From positions 1 through 64,000 of the forward strand of contig JBHLRS010000016.1 of NCBI GenBank assembly GCA_048882325.1: 64,000 nt of DNA. Direction: 5' to 3'. Of the stretch, positions 28,889-40,743 are shown piece by piece. Made by a program: the position numbers and the translations under genes. The notes under the pieces are model-generated. The model did not search any database and was not told the origin of the DNA. It worked only from the letters and a program-made list of their open reading frames with translations. Each line of letters starts with the position of its first letter. Position 1 is the first letter of the stretch. This stretch comes from Candidatus Thorarchaeota archaeon (GTDB taxonomy: Archaea; Asgardarchaeota; Thorarchaeia; Thorarchaeales; Thorarchaeaceae).

Positions 28889-30073
28889 ATGGCAAGTGAA
28901 CGAAAGCCAGTCCTGAAAGAACTCGTTGAGAGAATCGGTTCTGGAGAATCAAGAACAGAACTGAAGAAGTATTTCGCTGACAAGTTGGGAGCTGTAAATC
29001 CTGTAGAGATAGAATACTATCGAAATGAATGGACAGCTGAGGGAATATCTGATGAGGATGTTCAAGTGCTATTGGATATGAGCCTCGAAGTCTTCAGAGA
29101 ATCAATCCAAAACCAGAAGCCATTGACCAAAAAAGGCCATCCATTATTCACGCTTATGACGGAACACTCGATGATGATGGAGTTTACTAATGAGCTGCAT
29201 GATCTAGTAAGTGGATTAGTAGCAGGTGAGAGAGAAGCTGGGTCAGGTTATATGGTTCGTGTCAGACAGCTGATTGGCTTTCTTGTTGAATCGGAATCCC
29301 ATTATCTTCGAGAAGAGAACGCTTTGTTTCCAGGTATTGAAAAGCATGGTCTAACTGGACCTCCTGCGGCAATGTGGAGTGAGCATCAGGACATTCATGC
29401 GAAAGAGAAGAAGATTTTCGATCTTAACTCCGATGATGACAAGAAATTAGAATCGAATCTGAAGGATATCAGTCTCCACACATTGGAACTCGCCAATTTG
29501 CTCGCAACCCATTTCAACAAGGAGAATAATATCCTGTTTCCAGCCGCTCTGAGACTGTTCAGCGATGCTGAATGGAACACTGTCGTTGATGACTTTGATG
29601 ACATTGGGTATTGCAGCTACTCAGTACGGCCAGAGGGAAGTAGCAGGACCACTGAAGTAGAGGCCGAGGAAGGAGAAATTGTTCTTGGGAGTGGAAAGCT
29701 GAAGATTCCTCTGTTGGAAGCAATCCTCAGTCGTCTCCCAATCGATATTACTTTTGTTGATGCACAAGACCGTGTCCAGTTCTTCAGTGAAGCACCCGAA
29801 CGAATCTTCGTACGGTCTCGAGCAATTATCGGAAGAAGTGTTCAGTTGTGCCATCCAAAGGACAGTGTCTATGCAGTAGAAGAGATACTTAACGATTTTA
29901 GGGATGGAAAACGAGACTCTGCGGAGTTTTGGATAAACCTCAGAAACAAGACAATTCACATTCGATACTTTGCTGTCCGAGATGGCGCGGGCGAGTATCT
30001 TGGGTGTCTTGAGGTAAGCCAAGACATCACAGAGATTAAGAAGATAACTGGTGAAAAGAGGCTCTTAGATTAA
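28889..30073 (+). CDS. DUF438 / hemerythrin / PAS domain protein
   Basis: GHP....M.EH, HY.REEN.LFP, MW.EH, H..KENNILFP; C-terminal PAS with R.F.R...IGR.V..CHP. Confidence 0.92.
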   Translation: MASERKPVLKELVERIGSGESRTELKKYFADKLGAVNPVEIEYYRNEWTAEGISDEDVQVLLDMSLEVFRESIQNQKPLTKKGHPLFTLMTEHSMMMEFTNELHDLVSGLVAGEREAGSGYMVRVRQLIGFLVESESHYLREENALFPGIEKHGLTGPPAAMWSEHQDIHAKEKKIFDLNSDDDKKLESNLKDISLHTLELANLLATHFNKENNILFPAALRLFSDAEWNTVVDDFDDIGYCSYSVRPEGSSRTTEVEAEEGEIVLGSGKLKIPLLEAILSRLPIDITFVDAQDRVQFFSEAPERIFVRSRAIIGRSVQLCHPKDSVYAVEEILNDFRDGKRDSAEFWINLRNKTIHIRYFAVRDGAGEYLGCLEVSQDITEIKKITGEKRLLD

Positions 30074-30951
30074 GTAGGCCATTTCGGTGTCATTGAGAAA
30101 TATACATTATCCATATCACTAGAGAGTACTGCTACTGGCAGATGCGGAGTGTCGTATTGCAACGCTACATTGCCAAGTTTATCGGCGATAATGAGACCAG
30201 CCTCTCCACTCGTTTTCTGACGAAGTTCACTCATCATTGCTTCTGCGGCTTGTTGAACAGTACGGCCCTGCTCAACATGGAACACTGCCATTCTTCCCAT
30301 CGTGATTCTGAGGATTTGTTCACCTTTCCCGGTACAACTTACGCCAGCTATATCGTTAGCATAAACGCCAGCTCCAATGATAGGACTGTCTCCTACTCTT
30401 CCAGGTAGTTTCCCTGGCCAACCACTTGTTGACGCCCCCGAAGCGATTCGACCAGTTTCATCAACCGCTATCGCGCCCACTGTGTCACACTCTTGCGCAA
30501 TAAGTGGACGTTCTGTTCTCTGAGTCGAGCTTTCTTCACGATACCCTTCCTTTAGCATCTGTTTGTATAGCTTGTTTGCTCCGGACCCAACTATCTGAAA
30601 GTTCGGTGTTCGTTCAAGAACATAGCGCGCGAGTGAGATTGGATGAGCAACATCCTGTACAGCCATAACAGCTCCACTCTCGAGTCTTTTGCCATCCATA
30701 ATTATTGCATCTAGTTCAATCTCACCATCACGATTCTTACTTGCTCCAAGACCTGCAGTGAAGAGGTTAGTTTCCTCAAGAACCCAGATCGCAGTCTCAA
30801 CAGCATCAAGAGATGATCCGCCCTTTTCAAGAGTACACATTCCTTGTTCTGCAGCTTTGCTTACTGCCTTCAGAATAGCATCATGATGTTTCTCTTCGAA
30901 GACAGTTGCACCTCCATGCACAATGACAATAGGGAGCTTCAGTAGGAACAC
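30070..30951 (-). CDS. Isoaspartyl peptidase/L-asparaginase (Ntn hydrolase)
   Basis: VHGGA, DTVGA (nucleophile Thr), STSG, GRVGDSP and TG.GE motifs. Confidence 0.93.
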   Translation of the reverse strand: MFLLKLPIVIVHGGATVFEEKHHDAILKAVSKAAEQGMCTLEKGGSSLDAVETAIWVLEETNLFTAGLGASKNRDGEIELDAIIMDGKRLESGAVMAVQDVAHPISLARYVLERTPNFQIVGSGANKLYKQMLKEGYREESSTQRTERPLIAQECDTVGAIAVDETGRIASGASTSGWPGKLPGRVGDSPIIGAGVYANDIAGVSCTGKGEQILRITMGRMAVFHVEQGRTVQQAAEAMMSELRQKTSGEAGLIIADKLGNVALQYDTPHLPVAVLSSDMDNVYFSMTPKWPT

Positions 30952-30999
30952 CGAGTGTAGTGCATATTAGAGTAGGACAAAAATATATCGAGAGGTCAT

Positions 31000-31899
31000 T
31001 CACATACCCAATCGATGGAGCTCTTCTTCAAACATCTTCTGTCTGTCTGCCAACGCTACTCTTCTACCAGCAAATGTTCCTAGATCAAGTGTGCCTGCTT
31101 TTGCTTGCTCATCCAGTCGTGCAATCTCAGCTTTGATCTCAGCTATTCGCTCCCGGATAACATCTACTCGAGACGCAGCACCCATCTGATCATCTTGAGT
31201 CGGTGACTGAACAGATATAATCTGCCCATCTCGAATCCGGTAAATTCGATCGCATTGCCTAGCAATCGAGGGATCATGGGTCACCATCAGGACTGTCTTT
31301 CCAAACTCCTTGTTCACCTTGTGTAGATATTCGACGATGATGGCTCCAGTTTCTGTGTCCAAGTCCCCGGTTGGTTCATCACATAACAAAACTTTCGGAT
31401 CATTCGCAATAGCAGCAGCAATTGCAACCCGCTGTCGTTCGCCTCCGGATAGCTCATCAGGTTTGTGCTTCATCCGGTCAGCAAGGCCCACAATATTGAG
31501 CAATTCTTCCACTCGTGCCTTTCTGGTACTTCCATCAGCTTTGGCGGCAAGCATAGGCAGTTCAACATTTTCGTAGGCGGTAAGGGTCGGTATGAGATTT
31601 AGTTCTTGGAAGATATGTCCAACAATCTCTCGTCGCAAGGCAACAAGCTGTGTGGGATTTGCATTCGTCACGTCATATCCTGCAACGACAGTGGTACCAG
31701 CTGTAGCTTTTGTAATTCCACCGAGAATATTGAGTAGAGTTGTCTTTCCAGATCCACTCGCTCCGACAATAGCGACCATCTCACCCTTGTCAACTTGAAT
31801 TGACAGACCTCGAAGGGCCTGGACCTCAACACTTCCCAGTCGAAAGACCTTCACGAGGTCATCCGCTTGAATATACGCTTTATTACTCATCATTATCAC
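31000..31899 (-). CDS. ABC transporter ATP-binding protein (LolD/MacB-type) with coiled C-terminal extension
   Basis: GASGSGKT, LSGGERQR, DEPTG and VTHD motifs. Confidence 0.95.
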   Translation of the reverse strand: MIMMSNKAYIQADDLVKVFRLGSVEVQALRGLSIQVDKGEMVAIVGASGSGKTTLLNILGGITKATAGTTVVAGYDVTNANPTQLVALRREIVGHIFQELNLIPTLTAYENVELPMLAAKADGSTRKARVEELLNIVGLADRMKHKPDELSGGERQRVAIAAAIANDPKVLLCDEPTGDLDTETGAIIVEYLHKVNKEFGKTVLMVTHDPSIARQCDRIYRIRDGQIISVQSPTQDDQMGAASRVDVIRERIAEIKAEIARLDEQAKAGTLDLGTFAGRRVALADRQKMFEEELHRLGM

Positions 31900-34686
31900 C
31901 TATGCTCTTAACACGTCAACTTTCGTTTCGGGTCGTCTGGAAGCCCACCAGACAGGAATAATTGCTGCAAGTAGAATCACTACTATGAGAATCAGATTCG
32001 TGGTGAACGCTGGTCCTCCTAAAGTCACTCTGTATCGTATCAATCCAGTTGCATTCGTATTTTGTTGTGAGGCTTGCCCTAGGTTTTGAGCAAAGCCAAC
32101 CAATCCTCCGAGGAGGAGTGCAAACACAACTGTGACCATAACTTCTGCTAGTAAGGTCTTGAATAGCTGCCACTTGCTGAACCCCCGAACAGAGAGCAAG
32201 GCAATCTCAGCATCTTTCTCTCTGAGTGTAAGGATTACCACAAGTGCGACACCAGCTAATGCGAGGATAATTGCGAAACTTATTGCTAGATACTGTATCT
32301 TAGTGGTTCCACTTCGAAGAGGACTCGATTGATAATCAGCAATCTCTGAAGTGACCGAATACGTAGAGTATACCTCGTCGAAATCAAGAATGAATTGTTG
32401 TTGAAGAATAGTCCCATTCACACCCGGTGCAGTATCAACTAAGATGTTCGCAGTTGATGTGTGGATGAGCATGCTCTCGTTCAAGAAAGACTCAGATACA
32501 ATGGATACATAGTCTCCACCTGTTGTGAAAGTGAATCCCACAATGGCTATTTCAATTATTGACTGATACCCAATTAGGCCGACAATGGTTAGGGCAAAGG
32601 TTCCTGAACCAAAAGGACCATCAACATAGATTTGGTCGCCTACCTCCAAGTCCAGAGTCTTTGCAACATCTCGTGAGATGATGATACCATCGTCACCGAG
32701 GTTGTTCAACATTTCCTCGAAATTACTTGTAAACCAAGCTGATTCCCAATACCCAACTTCCATCCATTCATCAGGTCGTATGCCCTTGGTATCTATCGTG
32801 TTAGTCCCTGCTCTGAGATCAAGATGATACTCTGGAGTGACAGCATCCACCTCCTCATATGCTGAGACCTGATCAAGCATCTCGGTCATGTTTGCTCCTG
32901 CTTCTAGTTGGATGCGGACATCAGCTCCCACATCATAACGAGCAGTCCTCTCTGTGTAATCATATTGTGAATATAGGCTTCCAGTAGCAAAGATTCCATA
33001 CGAAACTATGAGTGAAATAATGAAGACAAGAGACGCTGTTCGAGCTGGATTGCGTTTCACATTTCTTGTAGCCAGATTCCCAAAGGCACCGAAAAACCTT
33101 CGACCTGCATTTACTACGGCCTCTTGGAATCTCAATGATCCTTTCATGAAGACCCTAGTTGCACCATAGAGAAACAGGAGTGGTCCAATGAAGTTGAGGA
33201 CACTATCAATTGCCAACCAGACAGCAATCAGTAGCGTAATCACAAAATTCCCGATTGTGATTGCGTTGAAGAGACTGCTGACATCTATTCCGAGTAGCCA
33301 TACTATAAGTTTGTAGGATCCAAGGACCAGAGAAACTGTAGGTAAGAGCTTCTTATATTCAGACACGTCTTCGACAAAGATGTACTGCTTCAACGCATCT
33401 AGAATCTCAAGTTTGGAGGCTCGGCCTGCAGGTCTCCAGACAGAGAACAAGCCCAAAAACATTCCAACGATGATAGATAGAATCACTGAGACGATGTTGG
33501 TAAGGACTGCAGAAAAGATATTGACACCAGTGATTCCCAGAACGAAGTATGCTGAGCCAGTCCCGAGGAAGATAGCAAGGCCACCAGCAATACCACCTAC
33601 CAACGCTCCTTCCACAAGGAACATGCGTTTGATTGTGTGTCGCTGATACCCCTTTGTCAGAAGCAGTCCGATTTCTCGTCTTCTGAAGTTATATCCAACA
33701 TCACTCACCATTGTCCCAGTGAAATATGCAAGTAAGAAGACAGGGAGTGACAATGAGATAAATGCGAGATTCATGAAGATTGAAGTAAATGAATAAATTG
33801 TTAGTGGGAATTGGAGATTAGATATGATATCCCCTTCGTAAGGACTAGCTGGAACACTGATTTGATTCTCAATGGTTGACAGTCTAGAAAGTGATGCATC
33901 TATATCATACGGATCAAGGAATCTTGGACGGTCTATCTGCAAATGTATGAGATTTCGTACTCCTACTGATCTATGGTCTGCTATCCCAGATGCTTCTTGA
34001 AGAATTGAGTCTACTGAGAGGTCCCAGTCAGTAATCATCAGGTTATATGTGGACACACCAAAAAAAGCTGCCGCACCAGGATCTCCACCAGCTATCAGCT
34101 GAAAGAAACTTAAGGCTGGAGCTTGGTAGATTGCATCTCGAGTGTAATGTGGGATACTGACTAATCCTGCAACAGTGAAATTCCGCTGGATGACCACAGG
34201 GAGAAGTGGGAATCTGTTTACAACAATCTCAATCTCTATTACTTGATCCAGCTCAAAAAGCGACTCATTTGCTGACCCCGCTACGACATATGTCTCGTTG
34301 GGACCAAGACTTGAACGCCCTGAAATCAGCTGCAAACCAGTCGTAAGAGCAGACGACATCTCAATCCCAGCTAGAGTCATGTTCACTCCTGTATTGTTAA
34401 AATCAAAGCTGAACTGAGTAGAGTGGGTGGTTTCGATGATTCCATCTGTCTCAAGTATGCTTGACTCAAGATCTTGTATGTCAGAAACTGTCCAGTTTGA
34501 GCTGGGACTTGCTACAGCAAAGTCGTAGAGGTACTCATCAACACTCGCATTGAGTGCATCCCTAGAGATGACATCTGCTGCAACGTTCGTGGCGGCAAAG
34601 AAAGTAGTTGCCAATAGCACACCAATAGTTAAAGCAATGAAAAGTCGATAACTTCGAGCAACTCGTTTGATGGCGTATCTGAACAT
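31900..34686 (-). CDS. FtsX/MacB-like ABC permease (duplicated)
   Basis: Two halves, each TM + large extracellular domain + RRREIGLL..KG or EIALL..RG. Confidence 0.9.
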   Translation of the reverse strand: MFRYAIKRVARSYRLFIALTIGVLLATTFFAATNVAADVISRDALNASVDEYLYDFAVASPSSNWTVSDIQDLESSILETDGIIETTHSTQFSFDFNNTGVNMTLAGIEMSSALTTGLQLISGRSSLGPNETYVVAGSANESLFELDQVIEIEIVVNRFPLLPVVIQRNFTVAGLVSIPHYTRDAIYQAPALSFFQLIAGGDPGAAAFFGVSTYNLMITDWDLSVDSILQEASGIADHRSVGVRNLIHLQIDRPRFLDPYDIDASLSRLSTIENQISVPASPYEGDIISNLQFPLTIYSFTSIFMNLAFISLSLPVFLLAYFTGTMVSDVGYNFRRREIGLLLTKGYQRHTIKRMFLVEGALVGGIAGGLAIFLGTGSAYFVLGITGVNIFSAVLTNIVSVILSIIVGMFLGLFSVWRPAGRASKLEILDALKQYIFVEDVSEYKKLLPTVSLVLGSYKLIVWLLGIDVSSLFNAITIGNFVITLLIAVWLAIDSVLNFIGPLLFLYGATRVFMKGSLRFQEAVVNAGRRFFGAFGNLATRNVKRNPARTASLVFIISLIVSYGIFATGSLYSQYDYTERTARYDVGADVRIQLEAGANMTEMLDQVSAYEEVDAVTPEYHLDLRAGTNTIDTKGIRPDEWMEVGYWESAWFTSNFEEMLNNLGDDGIIISRDVAKTLDLEVGDQIYVDGPFGSGTFALTIVGLIGYQSIIEIAIVGFTFTTGGDYVSIVSESFLNESMLIHTSTANILVDTAPGVNGTILQQQFILDFDEVYSTYSVTSEIADYQSSPLRSGTTKIQYLAISFAIILALAGVALVVILTLREKDAEIALLSVRGFSKWQLFKTLLAEVMVTVVFALLLGGLVGFAQNLGQASQQNTNATGLIRYRVTLGGPAFTTNLILIVVILLAAIIPVWWASRRPETKVDVLRA

Positions 34687-34850
34687 CGCAGCTTTGTCCT
34701 CCAGAATGCCCTATCAGTGAATCAAAGTCTTATAAACTGTTTGATGTTTGTCAAAAACCAAAAGTCAACGACCTATTTCTTTGTAATGATCAAAATATAG
34801 CAGATTTGAGCCAATGAAGCTACTGGGACTCACAGACTTATAAGATTCAC

Positions 34851-34874
34851 GATTATATCATATGTGATATAATC
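34851..34874. promoter_or_regulatory. Near-perfect 24-bp palindrome (operator or terminator)
   Basis: GATTATATCA-tatg-TGATATAATC between the 34877 stop and the permease promoter. Confidence 0.45.
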
Positions 34875-34876
34875 AT

Positions 34877-35443
34877 TCATATGCTGCCTTTCCGTCGATC
34901 ATACATCACAGCAATAACTGCAACAAACGCAATCAGGGTAATGCTAGTACTCACCACAATTGGCATAGTGACAGTTTGTGGAATGGTCGGAGTTGGGTTA
35001 GAATCGAAGACGACATCAATGTTTGAAGAAGTTCGTGAGTTGTTTGCCATATCATACGCCTTAACACGAACATTGAATGTACCTTCATTTGGGAATGTGG
35101 GAACAGATCCTGTATAGAAAGTCCCATTATGTGTCATAAGTCCAATGAAGGTCATGTTTGGACCCAAGACCCTCACAGTGACGTTTCGTATGTTGGGATC
35201 ATCGTCGTTCACAATCTCATCATCGGTCACATTGGCCCACACATCAAAACCGTTCCCAAGTTCTGGTTCACCCTCCATCCCCCAACCATAGATGTTCGGT
35301 CTCGTCACATCCTGAGCAATGATGGGTTGAAGAGTAGAAAGGAAAATGGTCGCAACAAAAAGCAGTCCAAGCAATGTAATGAAACGAAGTTGGGCCATTG
35401 TAATCACGGACTCGGTTGTGTTTTCCTTAATTAGGTCGCTCAT
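34877..35443 (-). CDS. Small secreted membrane-anchored Ig-like protein
   Basis: Signal peptide, ANVTD...V.AYD.ANN pattern, PT linker, C-terminal TM plus RRK. Confidence 0.7.
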   Translation of the reverse strand: MSDLIKENTTESVITMAQLRFITLLGLLFVATIFLSTLQPIIAQDVTRPNIYGWGMEGEPELGNGFDVWANVTDDEIVNDDDPNIRNVTVRVLGPNMTFIGLMTHNGTFYTGSVPTFPNEGTFNVRVKAYDMANNSRTSSNIDVVFDSNPTPTIPQTVTMPIVVSTSITLIAFVAVIAVMYDRRKGSI

Positions 35444-36852: not shown

Positions 36853-36997
36853 GAGTTCAGCTCCTACATATAATCCAACACCTATTCTACTGAAAAGCTC
36901 TTCGTCTAATTCTGTTTAGGCACCAGAATAGACGAACCAGTATCTGAGGTACTTGTTAAATGTAAGACATTGCAAACAATTCCCTGCTCAGAAAGAG

Positions 36998-37022
36998 AAG
37001 GTGGGCACGGCTCTGTGCGAGC
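36998..37022 (-). repeat. 25-bp repeat, copy of 38412-38436
   Basis: aaggtgggcacggctctgtgcgagc vs aaggtgggcgcagctctgtgcgagc (23/25 identical); begins 3 nt after the LRR stop. Confidence 0.85.
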
Positions 37023-37025
37023 TCC

Positions 37026-38378
37026 CTACCATAGTCTTCTTTGCCATTTGATCTTCTTCTTCATCTTTCGAAGTCTGGGTGATTGTATCTCTTTCAACAT
37101 CTTGCGATTAGCAACTGGTTTAATCTTTCCAAATTTAATGTCTTTCAACGCAGGACATGAGAGAAGTGGAGTAATATCAACCTTCGACATGAGCTTCGAG
37201 GTTATTCTAAACGACCTAAGATTCTTCAGTCCAGACAAGGGAGATAAGTCGATACTTTCAAGACTTGAATGCTCCAAGCCCAAGCTTTCTAGACTGGTAC
37301 AAGCTGACAGTGGTGTTAGGTCGATATCAACGAGGTGTCTTGAGCCGAGGTTAATCTCTCTCAATGATGAAGAAACGATAGGTGTAAGATCTATTGTCTC
37401 TAACATGTTTCCAGAGATGTCCAAGGACTCACACGTAAGCCTTGTTGGAAACACGAGCTCGTTAATCTTGTTGTCTGCAAGGTTGATCTTTTTGAGATGC
37501 AGATGTTCAAGCGGAGTAAGGTCTACCTTAGTAAGATTACATGCTTCAAAACTGATGTGTTCTAGTTTAGAGCATGTACTAAGAGGTGAGAAGTCGACCT
37601 CCGATATCTTCTGTTTTGAGAAGATGACTTCCTTTAGGTCTTTGGAGGCGCGCAATGGTGACAAGTCGATTGACTTGAGGGTTTTGGGGTCTCTCTTCTT
37701 TCCCCCGGCAAACGTGATGCTTTCAAGTGATGATATTGAAGGAAGAACAACCGCTTCAGGCACCCACCTTAGAACACGAACATGAGTGATCGATTTCGAT
37801 GTATTCAACCATGACAGGTCAGATTCTCTCAGAGAGTGGTAGGTCAGACTCTTCAGACTCGGTAGGAGTGGAATGGTCTTTCTGTCATGTTCCACATTAC
37901 CATGTATGAGCAGACTCTCAAGACGATTAGAGTCAGGAAAGGTGACGTTTGCAACATATGCGTCACAAAGACAAGGTGTGTCATCAATACTGACAATAAT
38001 TGATGAGGGTTGAGTAAAGGGAGAAAGGTCGATTGTACCATCCAAACCCTTGATGGTCAATTCTCTGACTGACTCATTGTTGCTATACTTACTGAAGTCA
38101 ATACCATCTAGAGTCCCGAGCCTGTTACCTTTTAGGACTTCTCTTAGAAAAGACCACCCACAAGATATGAACAATTCTTCAGCAGCTGAAGCATATCTGG
38201 CCAACCCATCTATCTGTTCTTGAGTTATGTCACTACCTGTAATCATTAGTTTGCTTTTATCAAATTTCCAATCGAATTTTGTATGTCTTCGTTCATACCA
38301 ATCTATTTTTCCAGTCTTCATCCTACTCATGCACTTGAACGACATCGAGTTTAAGATTTTGGTAAAACACGGCAACAA
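37026..38378 (-). CDS. Leucine-rich repeat protein (start uncertain)
   Basis: Repeated IDLSPL/VDLTPL..L..L.L..N units in the C-terminal half. Confidence 0.85.
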   Translation of the reverse strand: MLPCFTKILNSMSFKCMSRMKTGKIDWYERRHTKFDWKFDKSKLMITGSDITQEQIDGLARYASAAEELFISCGWSFLREVLKGNRLGTLDGIDFSKYSNNESVRELTIKGLDGTIDLSPFTQPSSIIVSIDDTPCLCDAYVANVTFPDSNRLESLLIHGNVEHDRKTIPLLPSLKSLTYHSLRESDLSWLNTSKSITHVRVLRWVPEAVVLPSISSLESITFAGGKKRDPKTLKSIDLSPLRASKDLKEVIFSKQKISEVDFSPLSTCSKLEHISFEACNLTKVDLTPLEHLHLKKINLADNKINELVFPTRLTCESLDISGNMLETIDLTPIVSSSLREINLGSRHLVDIDLTPLSACTSLESLGLEHSSLESIDLSPLSGLKNLRSFRITSKLMSKVDITPLLSCPALKDIKFGKIKPVANRKMLKEIQSPRLRKMKKKIKWQRRLW

Positions 38379-38413
38379 CAGATCATTCGCACGTCATAAG
38401 ATGAAAAGGAAAA

Positions 38414-38571
38414 GGTGGGCGCAGCTCTGTGCGAGCAACGCGGTGCATTGCCGCGCCACCACCTAATGTTTTGTGCGCCGCATTCCGAAGAACCCATTTT
38501 GAGGTTAATCGCAAGATAAGCTCCGCACGCCAAAGAGCTTAATCGGCTCGCACATTGAATATGCCGCGCCC
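38414..38571 (-). ncRNA. Candidate structured ncRNA or leader of unknown class
   Basis: Terminal helices GGGCGCGGC/GCUGCGCCC and UGUGCGAGC/GCUCGCACA, internal hairpins, G-U pairs favouring the minus strand, ends in ACC plus a U tract. Confidence 0.5.
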
Positions 38572-38928
38572 TTGAGTGATTAAGTCATAGAAGCTTTCGC
38601 AGATATACCTTTGTGTCGGCGAAACTTCAGCGTGACTTTCTGCCGTGCTGTTGATGATAGCTCATATTATCTTATAACAAGCTTCTATAAAAGGTTGGTG
38701 GGCGTGTACGTTTTCCATAGTTAAAAACAAGATTCGTTAACCTTTACGAACAGAGAGGACAACTGTACCCTCAATCGCAACCTTTAATCGACGTTCATCA
38801 TCTTGAAACCTTAAGGCCAACGTAGAGAGAAAAAGACCTTAATGTGGGACAGTGTGCGACAGTCCTCTCTGTACCGGGTTTATGTTTCAAGACTTGGCCA
38901 GAAAGTAGATAGTTGGAGACATGACTTC

Positions 38929-40743
38929 ATGCGTGTATATCTTGACGCGAACTTCTTCATATCGGGGTTCTCAGATAGACCCAAAGACGTGGCTATTGTA
39001 AAAGAGGCCGCGGACAAAGCAGGTATGGAACTGTGGATCACCAGACAAGTGTTCCAGGAGCTGCGTTGGTACCTGAGAAGAGAAGCTGAGAACATAGTCC
39101 AGATTGATGAAACTCTCTCTAAGGACATCAAGTCATTTATAGACAGTATCTCAAGACCCGAGTCTTCACTACCACAACCTAATGACATGTCTCTGGTTCT
39201 AGGTGCGATGAGGAACAAAGGCTCCAAGATAGTCACAAGCGACCTGAAGCTTCTAAACACAATCCAAGACCTCAACGTGGAGGTTGAGGGTATAGTGGGT
39301 TCAGCGTTTGTTTTGGAGCTCATGGAGTCTGTGGATGATGAGAAACTCAAGAGGGAACTCTCGATCATCAGGGACCGCATCTACTCGGAAGAAGTCCGTT
39401 ACAGTATTGCTAGACAAGAGTCGTATGACCCAGTAACTAGGATTCGTATCATTGAGGATCATGCTCTTCGAGTATTAAGAACCGTCAAGCGTCCAGCAGA
39501 GGGACTTGACAAGAAATTATCGAGAGGTCAACCTTTGTTTGTCCTTGATTTCCTCGAGGACATCAAAGCGGACATTCCGACAATGTTCGAGGACTTTAGG
39601 GAGGGCAAGTACGACACTTTGGCCCTCGAGATCGAAACCGTACAGAATGAGATTGAGAGATTATTGATAGTGTCCACACTGACTGAGGACAGTGAAACAC
39701 ATGGTCAGTTGGTGAAGCAAGCCTCGGATTTGACATTGTTCCTATACTATTTGGAAACCATATGCCACCTCTATCGAGGAACAAGACAGGGAATAGAGGA
39801 CGCATTAGAGATTAGTGATGAGGCATTCAGACTTCTAATGTTCGCAGAGGTCAGCAATGAAGAGCTCAAGGCCTCAGTCTTCTTTGTTAGAATTGTGCTT
39901 GCGCTCATCAGAGAAGACTATGATGAGATTGACTATTACTATAGTCTATATGACAGCATGATTAACAGAATTAACCTTACAGACATGCTGGAAACCTCTG
40001 AGGGACTCTATATCACAATGCAGATACTCAGGAAGTTCATGGGCGGGTTCAGTCTGACAAAGAACAAGCTACAATATCCTGAAGTCACGATGTCGATGCT
40101 TAACGACCTTGCTAAATATTCGATTCAGTTTGATGATCATGACAATGCGTGGCAGCTAGCAGTCACAGCCTATAAGATTGGTGTAGCATACAACAAGGAA
40201 GAAGGAGCTCTAAGATCATTCCTCATGCTTTACAAGGTGTCATCCTCCTCTCATGATAGATTCAAACCAGCCCTTGAGAAGATTGCAGAACATGCTCTGA
40301 AAGCCTTCGTGAAGAAAGGATGGAACACATCACAAATAACTCCTATATTGAACGAGATTCAAGGTCAGGTTCCTCAGGTGAACGGGATGACCACTGATGG
40401 ACCAGTCGATCTCAAGAAGTTGAAAGAGGAACTCATAGGATGGATGGATGTGCTCTCCCTCGAAACGATCGAAGGCGTTGAGATGCTTGTCGTAAGAAAT
40501 GACAAACTCCAGGCACGAATAGCCATAGCAGTAGGAAATCATCCTGAAATTAGTGCTCTGAAGACGGGACACAAGATAGCCCTCACAAACGGTAGCTTTG
40601 AAGTTGTGGATGCAAACCCTGAAGTGGTTGAGAAGTATTCTATAATACTGAAGATAAATCCGAGTGAAAGCGCTGAGATTTCATACGAAGGTGAGTATGG
40701 TTTCAGCTATCTCAAGGTGGCTGAACCTGAAGCTGAAATTTAG
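38929..40743 (+). CDS. PIN-domain protein with long helical region and C-terminal beta domain
   Basis: VYLDANFF, V.QEL, D.SL and IVTSD..L PIN acidic motifs; ATG at 38929 follows GGAG. Confidence 0.8.
   Translation: MRVYLDANFFISGFSDRPKDVAIVKEAADKAGMELWITRQVFQELRWYLRREAENIVQIDETLSKDIKSFIDSISRPESSLPQPNDMSLVLGAMRNKGSKIVTSDLKLLNTIQDLNVEVEGIVGSAFVLELMESVDDEKLKRELSIIRDRIYSEEVRYSIARQESYDPVTRIRIIEDHALRVLRTVKRPAEGLDKKLSRGQPLFVLDFLEDIKADIPTMFEDFREGKYDTLALEIETVQNEIERLLIVSTLTEDSETHGQLVKQASDLTLFLYYLETICHLYRGTRQGIEDALEISDEAFRLLMFAEVSNEELKASVFFVRIVLALIREDYDEIDYYYSLYDSMINRINLTDMLETSEGLYITMQILRKFMGGFSLTKNKLQYPEVTMSMLNDLAKYSIQFDDHDNAWQLAVTAYKIGVAYNKEEGALRSFLMLYKVSSSSHDRFKPALEKIAEHALKAFVKKGWNTSQITPILNEIQGQVPQVNGMTTDGPVDLKKLKEELIGWMDVLSLETIEGVEMLVVRNDKLQARIAIAVGNHPEISALKTGHKIALTNGSFEVVDANPEVVEKYSIILKINPSESAEISYEGEYGFSYLKVAEPEAEI

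Follow-up and report, generated by a model that had tools for sequence, protein, structure and literature searches.

A covarying structured RNA of Thorarchaeia with a tRNA-like acceptor tip, usually adjoining an Ig-like/MacB-type ABC transporter operon

Introduction

No known organisms are more closely related to eukaryotes than the Asgard archaea, and to our knowledge almost nothing has been learned of their lineage-specific non-coding RNAs. The window analysed here is a stretch of 64,000 nucleotides from a Candidatus Thorarchaeota archaeon (assembly GCA_048882325.1, contig JBHLRS010000016.1). A first-pass annotation, made from the letters of the DNA, flagged a 158-nt segment of its minus strand as a structured RNA with a tRNA-like 3' end and a built-in alternative fold, and interpreted it as a novel non-coding RNA or as a riboswitch or attenuator. 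The locus raises the question of whether this segment is the gene of an RNA in its own right, the leader of the genes that follow it, a diverged member of a known RNA family, or the end of a mobile element.

Results

Fold and covariation of the core

The minus strand of the flagged segment folds with a minimum free energy of -69.5 kcal/mol (z -3.8), and none of 200 shuffled sequences folded as well; the plus strand folds weakly (z -1.9). The segment is richer in GC than its flanks, as had been noticed before (0.54 in 38400-38549 versus 0.35-0.42 in the flanking sequence). RNAalifold applied to 31 distinct aligned sequences, which contain long invariant runs, returned 43 pairs, 31 of them with compensatory changes. 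Among 51 distinct matches of the covariance model, canonical pairs occupy 96.5% of the paired cells, versus 80.4% in shuffled alignments and 34-46% when the pairing partners are slid. Double (compensatory) changes are present in 32 of the 43 pairs and support six helices. The first-pass annotation had named the collection of homologs and a covariation check among the ways to examine the RNA; homologs exist, and the covariation is strong.

The core domain consists of the helices P1 and P2, separated by an asymmetric internal loop, and a four-way junction with P3, P4, and P5 (Table 1). It scores 180.7 bits against the covariance model. The terminal 9-bp helix, the internal loop, the second helix, two of the multiloop hairpins, and the end composed of ACC and a T-rich tract had been placed correctly in the first-pass annotation. 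Three of the P1 pairs never vary, and the other six show compensatory changes. The P3 loop (38525-38533) is nine nucleotides long with seven invariant positions, and the A-rich P4 loop (38496-38501) is conserved. The third multiloop helix had been drawn as a local pairing of 38451-38457 with 38437-38443, but the comparative data pair 38437-38443 with 38478-38484, forming the long-range helix P5.

P5 closes a loop of about 28 nt that contains the invariant 17-mer 38448-38464. This segment is unchanged in 31 of the 31 aligned sequences and identical in nearly all of the 51 distinct sequences. The largest departures are the loss of one UGG in one genome (L203/L214, G070) and the insertion of a 34-nt hairpin in the middle of the segment in another (L222, G068), whereas a few other sequences have single-base changes at its ends. 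The position of the inserted hairpin suggests that the loop has two functional halves, and the 17-mer is likely to be a functional surface of the RNA. The bases of a local hairpin that can be drawn within the invariant loop (helix 7) show no compensatory change.

A 9-mer occurs twice, exactly as annotated, at 38562-38570 and 38449-38457, so that the invariant loop could pair with the 3' strand of P1 instead of the P1 5' strand. This alternative hairpin can be drawn in 92.8% of cells; it has no covariation support, because the loop never varies. A built-in alternative fold of the 3' arm may exist.

Table 1. Positions of the RNA domains, helices, and flanking signals in the window
Feature	Position	Strand	Basis or remark
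TATA-like box TTTTATA	38686..38692	minus	conserved block begins here
Conserved 5' domain or leader	38572..38664	minus	genus identity, paired helices
5' tail of the 5' domain	38653-38661	minus	can pair with the invariant P5 loop
P0a closing helix	38634-38638 with 38582-38586	minus	75% paired within the genus
P0b hairpin	38619-38628 with 38590-38600	minus	94% paired, 3 compensatory pairs within the genus
Core (3') domain: P1, internal loop, P2, four-way junction with P3/P4/P5, ACC tail	38414..38571	minus	fold, covariation, covariance-model score
P1 5' strand	38563..38571	minus	first four bases GGGC near-invariant; remainder covaries
Internal loop, asymmetric	38555-38562 facing 2-3 nt	minus	
P2 5' strand	38546..38554	minus	partner 38429-38436
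P3 hairpin	38515..38544 (38535-38544 / 38515-38523)	minus	7/9 pairs compensatory (helices 3 and 4)
P4 hairpin	38491..38506 (38502-38506 / 38491-38495)	minus	5/5 pairs compensatory (helix 5)
P5 5' strand, long-range helix	38478..38484	minus	8/9 pairs compensatory; 98.7% of cells paired (helix 6)
17-nt invariant segment in P5 loop	38448..38464	minus	two GGU repeats, then a GC-rich run
P5 3' strand	38437..38443	minus	stacks directly on the P2 3' strand
P2 3' strand	38429..38436	minus	compensatory changes in 6/7 P2 pairs (helix 2)
P1 3' strand	38417..38425	minus	comparative pairing with 38563-38571; 9-bp terminal helix
Unpaired ACC tail	38414..38416	minus	invariant; next base U or C, never A
T/pyrimidine-rich tract	38400..38413	minus	directly 3' of the ACC tail
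Second copy of the last ~31 nt (P2 and P1 3' strands, ACC, pyrimidine tract)	36992..37022	minus	just past the LRR stop codon

Extent of the conserved unit and its flanks

Among ten species of the genus, a conserved block extends from 38700 to 38408 above a background identity of about 0.3. The identity is 0.73-0.78 over 38700-38572, rises to 0.85-1.00 in the core, and drops back past 38408. The proposed unit of about 158 nt hence marks the borders of the core domain but not those of the whole conserved unit, which has an additional 90-120 nt or so on its 5' side. The minimum free energy structure of the 251-nt sequence contains P0a and P0b and leaves the core intact, and a second genus has an equivalent closing helix with a GC-to-AU swap.

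Within the genus, the pairing of the 5' tail with the invariant loop can be formed in 78% of cells, compared with 40-53% when the partners are slid. Duplex tests of the invariant loop against the 150 nt upstream gave z-scores of -2 to -3.9 in some lineages only. A family-wide pseudoknot between the 5' part and the loop was not established, as the family median z-score is -0.6.

The TTTTATA box, found exactly at the annotated position, is conserved ahead of the unit in most genera, irrespective of which gene lies upstream. The TATA-like boxes of the RNA resemble those of the tRNA genes of the same genome and have the same spacing, and the T-rich 3' flank is in the style of the tracts that follow these tRNA genes. 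The box probably acts as the promoter of a primary transcript some 250 nt long, with the flagged 158 nt as its probable 3' core, and the T-rich tract is likely to be an archaeal terminator.

The P0b loop (38601-38616, minus strand) reads as a textbook BRE and TATA box, and the motif is conserved in nearly all genera. It is located 40 to 95 nt upstream of the start of the core and, in the genus of the window, forms the loop of the covarying P0b hairpin. Because the loop sits where the tRNA genes of the genome have their BRE/TATA box, it could be a second promoter instead of an RNA motif. Farther upstream, several genomes of the genus share a conserved block of about 25 nt (38768-38792) that precedes the divergent gene of a PIN-domain protein (38842-40743, plus strand). 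The block may be part of the promoter of the PIN-domain gene or the true 5' end of that gene, and it overlaps a second, separately noted inverted repeat.

The tRNA-like end

At the tip of P1, the first four pairs are invariant, and together with the unpaired A and the CC that follows they are identical to the acceptor ends of tRNA-Val and tRNA-Gly(UCC) of the same organism; the rest of P1 covaries freely. The tRNA-like 3' end of the first-pass annotation is supported as far as the acceptor tip is concerned, but the RNA has no T or D arm. Nearly all tRNA genes of the genome, as identified by ARAGORN, encode the full CCA, whereas the RNA gene encodes ACC followed by U or C. Many of these tRNA genes have long introns in the ARAGORN predictions. 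Pairing of the invariant loop with the acceptor 3' strands of the tRNAs of the genome yielded no convincing partner and was treated as numerology.

The precursors of 4.5S RNA and tmRNA undergo tRNA-type end processing and are substrates of RNase P that present an acceptor-like terminal helix. By analogy, the simplest reading of the tip is that it would serve as a handle for end processing of the tRNA type.

Distribution in Thorarchaeia

The covariance model identifies one copy of the RNA in 68 of 87 Thorarchaeia genomes, including 21 of the 24 of high quality, and in 16 of 17 genera, all of which belong to one family. In an even sample of Asgard genomes from the phylum, the RNA was detected in 29/32 genomes of that family and in 0/118 from other Asgard families; these counts are from samples of incomplete genomes and should be read as "not found" rather than "absent". 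BLAST finds the element once in its own genome and in 26 of 36 genomes of the same family, and the similarity in distant relatives begins and ends at the borders of the 158-nt core. Among the matches listed in motif scans of all species genomes, those that are credible come only from Thorarchaeota, and those from outside Thorarchaeota are chance occurrences in GC-rich bacteria. The covariance model has no match in 38 viral contigs chosen by motif scan or in two other archaeal loci.

Comparison with known RNA families

No Rfam 15 family matches at its gathering score anywhere in the window, and none matches even at E<=10 within 38100-38900, which agrees with the first-pass statement that the RNA lacks the motifs of known RNAs. 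The papers retrieved on structured RNAs of Thorarchaeota and Asgard archaea and on the invariant motifs contain nothing relevant to this RNA. With no Rfam match and no matching motif in the searched literature, the RNA is a previously undescribed non-coding RNA family. The earlier proposal of a novel non-coding RNA is supported by a covarying, single-copy family that is confined to one lineage.

A tRNA is a cloverleaf with D, anticodon, and T arms, an acceptor stem of 7 bp (9 bp in tRNA-Sec), and an NCCA end. Both tRNA and tRNA-Sec were rejected, since ARAGORN predicts neither a tRNA nor a tmRNA gene in the window, the Rfam models of both are unmatched at E<=10, and the acceptor tip alone is mimicked; the tRNA-Sec of this genome is on another contig. 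A tmRNA combines a tRNA-like domain, which includes a T arm and the pair G3:U70, with pseudoknots and a tag reading frame. It was also discarded, as pair 3:70 is G-C in 51/51 sequences and the AUG after the loop is missing in many homologs.

Archaeal SRP RNA is about 300 nt long and is characterised by the Alu domain and the motifs of helices 5, 6, and 8, and RNase P RNA by the conserved regions CR-I to CR-V and the P4 pseudoknot. Neither Archaea_SRP (RF01857) nor RF00373 matches here. The RNase P RNA of the genome scores 164.6 bits on contig 3. Its SRP candidate is elsewhere, in a partial match of 50.5 bits, below the family cut-off, that covers the central part of the model and is truncated where contig 25 ends. 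A full-length SRP RNA occurs in five relatives; the Thorarchaeial RNA was detected in four of these as well. A divergent SRP, RNase P, or tRNA-Sec RNA was excluded because those genes are found elsewhere, with the reservation that the SRP match of this genome is partial and below the cut-off. Guide sRNAs are recognised by C (RUGAUGA) and D (CUGA) boxes, or by a pseudouridylation pocket with a K-turn and a 3' ACA. The RNA contains no UGAUGA, its one CUGA is in the 5' domain, its 3' tail is ACC rather than ACA, and no snoRNA family matches, so that C/D-box and H/ACA guides were rejected.

Gene neighbourhood

Downstream of the RNA, on the same strand, nearly all genera have genes for an Ig-like protein of about 190 aa, an FtsX/MacB-type permease of about 925 aa, a LolD/MacB-like ATPase, and an asparaginase-2 family protein. 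In the window, this operon occupies 30070-35443. The first protein of the operon has a signal peptide, an Ig-like domain, and a C-terminal anchor, and is thus membrane-anchored and extracellular. It was ruled out as an RNA-binding partner for this reason. The distribution of the protein is as narrow as that of the RNA (29/32 genomes in the family versus 1/118 others). Its gene in the window is at 34877-35443 (minus strand), and the protein family is almost confined to Thorarchaeia; in some genomes, the protein is fused into one of about 740 aa.

The RNA and the operon are separated in the window by three inserted genes, one of which encodes an LRR protein (37026-38378). The LRR gene is a local insertion present in part of one genus. 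This argues against the riboswitch or attenuator upstream of the LRR gene that the first-pass annotation had suggested, as the conserved neighbour is the Ig-like/ABC transporter operon. Additional evidence against it comes from at least four genomes in which unrelated genes are located between the RNA and the operon, and from one genome in which the operon is 12.6 kb away on the opposite strand while the RNA and its fold are kept. The gene immediately after the RNA varies and can encode an LRR protein, a 4Fe-4S protein, a class I Trp/Tyr aminoacyl-tRNA synthetase-like protein, or a response regulator (L208, L219, L220, L222). The upstream neighbours of the RNA vary among genomes as well. The first gene of the operon has a TATA-like box of its own about 25-35 nt before its start. 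A reading frame following the SD-like part of the loop was dismissed, since its start codon is not conserved.

A second copy of the 3' end

Several genomes of one genus have a repeat of the last 31-50 nt or so of the RNA 1.4-3.4 kb downstream; the copies flank inserted genes. In two sister genomes (L029 and L030), the second copies are about 50 nt long, orthologous, and 83-94% identical to the 3' end of the RNA in the window. They share a C-to-U change in the CCACC motif, and the duplication is therefore old and has been kept. The copy at 36992-37022 looks like an att-type duplication that arose from an insertion into the 3' end of the RNA gene, or like a reused terminator. Insertions recur immediately downstream of the RNA, at a hot spot in which foreign genes landed, at least once with a duplication of the 3' end, as happens at tRNA genes. 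In the genome of one relative, the region downstream of the RNA is rearranged.

Discussion

We favour, with moderate confidence, a stand-alone, stable, structured non-coding RNA of Thorarchaeia with tRNA-like end processing over a riboswitch. The gene that follows the RNA differs among genomes, and the fold is preserved where the operon is 12.6 kb away; moreover, the flanks of the RNA resemble those of the tRNA genes of the genome, and the first gene of the operon has its own TATA-like box. The comparisons show the conservation, fold, copy number, distribution, and synteny of the RNA; its transcription, end processing, action in trans, and partner are inferred. We infer the ends and the stability of such a stand-alone RNA from sequence comparison. 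Against it stands the location of the RNA directly upstream of the same operon, on the same strand, in most genera, which is also expected of a cis-regulatory leader. The first operon protein, being no RNA binder, also counts against a stand-alone RNA, as does the possibility that the BRE/TATA-like P0b loop is a second promoter.

According to the favoured explanation, the primary transcript probably begins some 25 nt past the TATA-like box 38686-38692 and ends in the T-rich tract right after 38414, for a length of about 250 nt. The core would fold into a long two-part stem, formed by P1 and P2, that carries the four-way junction with its three hairpins. The never-varying bases of the loops and the junction may form the working surface for a putative partner, a protein or another RNA. 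The tip of P1 and the unpaired ACC would be the handle for maturation of the tRNA type, with cleavage by RNase P at G38571 and trimming of the 3' end. The 158-nt core would be released by this maturation, or else the 5' domain would remain bound to it by the tail-to-loop pairing. Should the 5' domain be retained, P1 would be internal, and the reading of its tip as an acceptor mimic would be weakened. The RNA would act in trans, and it is likely to be functionally tied to the adjoining Thorarchaeia-specific Ig-like/MacB-type ABC operon.

The main rival, which we consider unlikely, is a cis-regulatory leader: a new class of archaeal riboswitch, or an attenuator that governs read-through of the T-rich tract into the Ig-like/MacB ABC operon. 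Riboswitches sit in the 5' UTR of the genes they control and switch between alternative pairings in a ligand-dependent manner. The invariant loop of such a leader would alternate between the 5' tail and the 3' strand of P1 with the ACC; both pairings can be drawn (in 78% of cells within the genus and in 92.8% of cells, respectively). The alternative helix has no covariation, and a hairpin is not required for termination in archaea. The RNA lies immediately upstream of the operon on the same strand in most genera while its upstream neighbours vary, it is as narrowly distributed as the first protein of the operon, and its unpaired junction and loop bases are invariant, all of which a leader would explain. 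Unrelated genes nevertheless break the adjacency in four or more genomes, and one genome retains the RNA with the operon 12.6 kb away on the opposite strand. Furthermore, a TATA-like box precedes the first operon gene, and the 3' tract of the RNA looks like the constitutive ends of tRNA genes.

We regard it as quite improbable that the RNA handles tRNA 3' ends, either by binding NCCA with its GGU-repeat loop, in the manner of a T-box or the L15 loop of RNase P, or by receiving CCA or an amino acid on its own acceptor-like end, in the manner of tmRNA and viral tRNA-like structures. The tip that mimics an acceptor end is identical to tRNA ends of the host, the invariant loop contains two or three GGU/UGG units complementary to ACC/CCA, and the sole natural deletion removes exactly one UGG unit. 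All of these points are resemblances, and they are opposed by the missing T arm, D arm, and anticodon-like loop, the lack of a tRNA or tmRNA in the ARAGORN prediction, and the G-C rather than G-U pair at position 3:70. The AUG after the loop is not conserved and does not open a tag reading frame, the gene encodes ACC and then U or C where host tRNA genes encode the full CCA, and the T-box family of Rfam is unmatched. We find it highly improbable that the stretch is a mobile-element end, an attachment site, or a repeat rather than an RNA gene. Ends of IS elements and MITEs come in many dispersed copies with terminal inverted repeats and a transposase nearby. The first-pass annotation had listed a match to a known IS or MITE end as grounds for abandoning the RNA; the element has a single full copy in its own genome and one per genome across the class, and neighbouring genes encode no transposase or integrase domain. 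Six helices have compensatory changes, and the covariance model is unmatched in the 38 viral contigs picked by motif scan. The recurrence of the last 31-50 nt or so around inserted genes in one genus is what such an element would predict, but this partial repeat is better explained by an insertion into the 3' end of the RNA gene, as at tRNA genes.

The covariation support for the RNA equals that of textbook RNAs, and almost all Thorarchaeial genomes have a single copy. The mimic of an acceptor stem and the absolutely conserved loops offer direct starting points for experiments. If it were a riboswitch or acted on tRNA ends, it would represent a new class of archaeal RNA regulator. In the latter case, the binding of uncharged CCA ends, as a T-box analogue in trans or in cis, or a CCA-completed and charged end of its own would link tRNA status to a lineage-specific surface and export module.

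Several known systems share parts of this architecture. T-box leaders, which are bacterial, similarly expose an unpaired UGG segment that could pair with an NCCA end, and have alternative pairings that can be drawn beside a U tract. In contrast, the Thorarchaeial RNA has no specifier loop, T-box consensus, or Rfam match, and the genes downstream of it are generally not related to aminoacyl-tRNA. The Mn2+ yybP-ykoY and NiCo riboswitches resemble it in their four-way junction, invariant junction and loop bases, and position upstream of transporter genes on the same strand, but here no Rfam family matches, the adjacency to the transporter is broken in several genomes, and the operon seems to have its own promoter. 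The bacterial precursors of 4.5S (SRP) RNA and tmRNA have a comparable G/C-rich terminal helix that begins with G and is followed by an unpaired ACC, and the promoter and terminator flanks of the Thorarchaeial RNA resemble those of tRNA genes. It differs from them in lacking the SRP helix 8 motifs, a T arm, a tag frame, and a match in Rfam, and cleavage by RNase P would here be a prediction. The orphan RNAs OLE, raiA, ROOL, and GOLLD do not match it in Rfam 15 by sequence or structure; the Thorarchaeial RNA comes from archaea (Asgard), is shorter, and has one copy in almost every genome of the class. Like them, it is a large, covarying, lineage-restricted RNA with conserved gene neighbours that is known from comparative genomics, and, as in OLE, genes for membrane proteins adjoin it.
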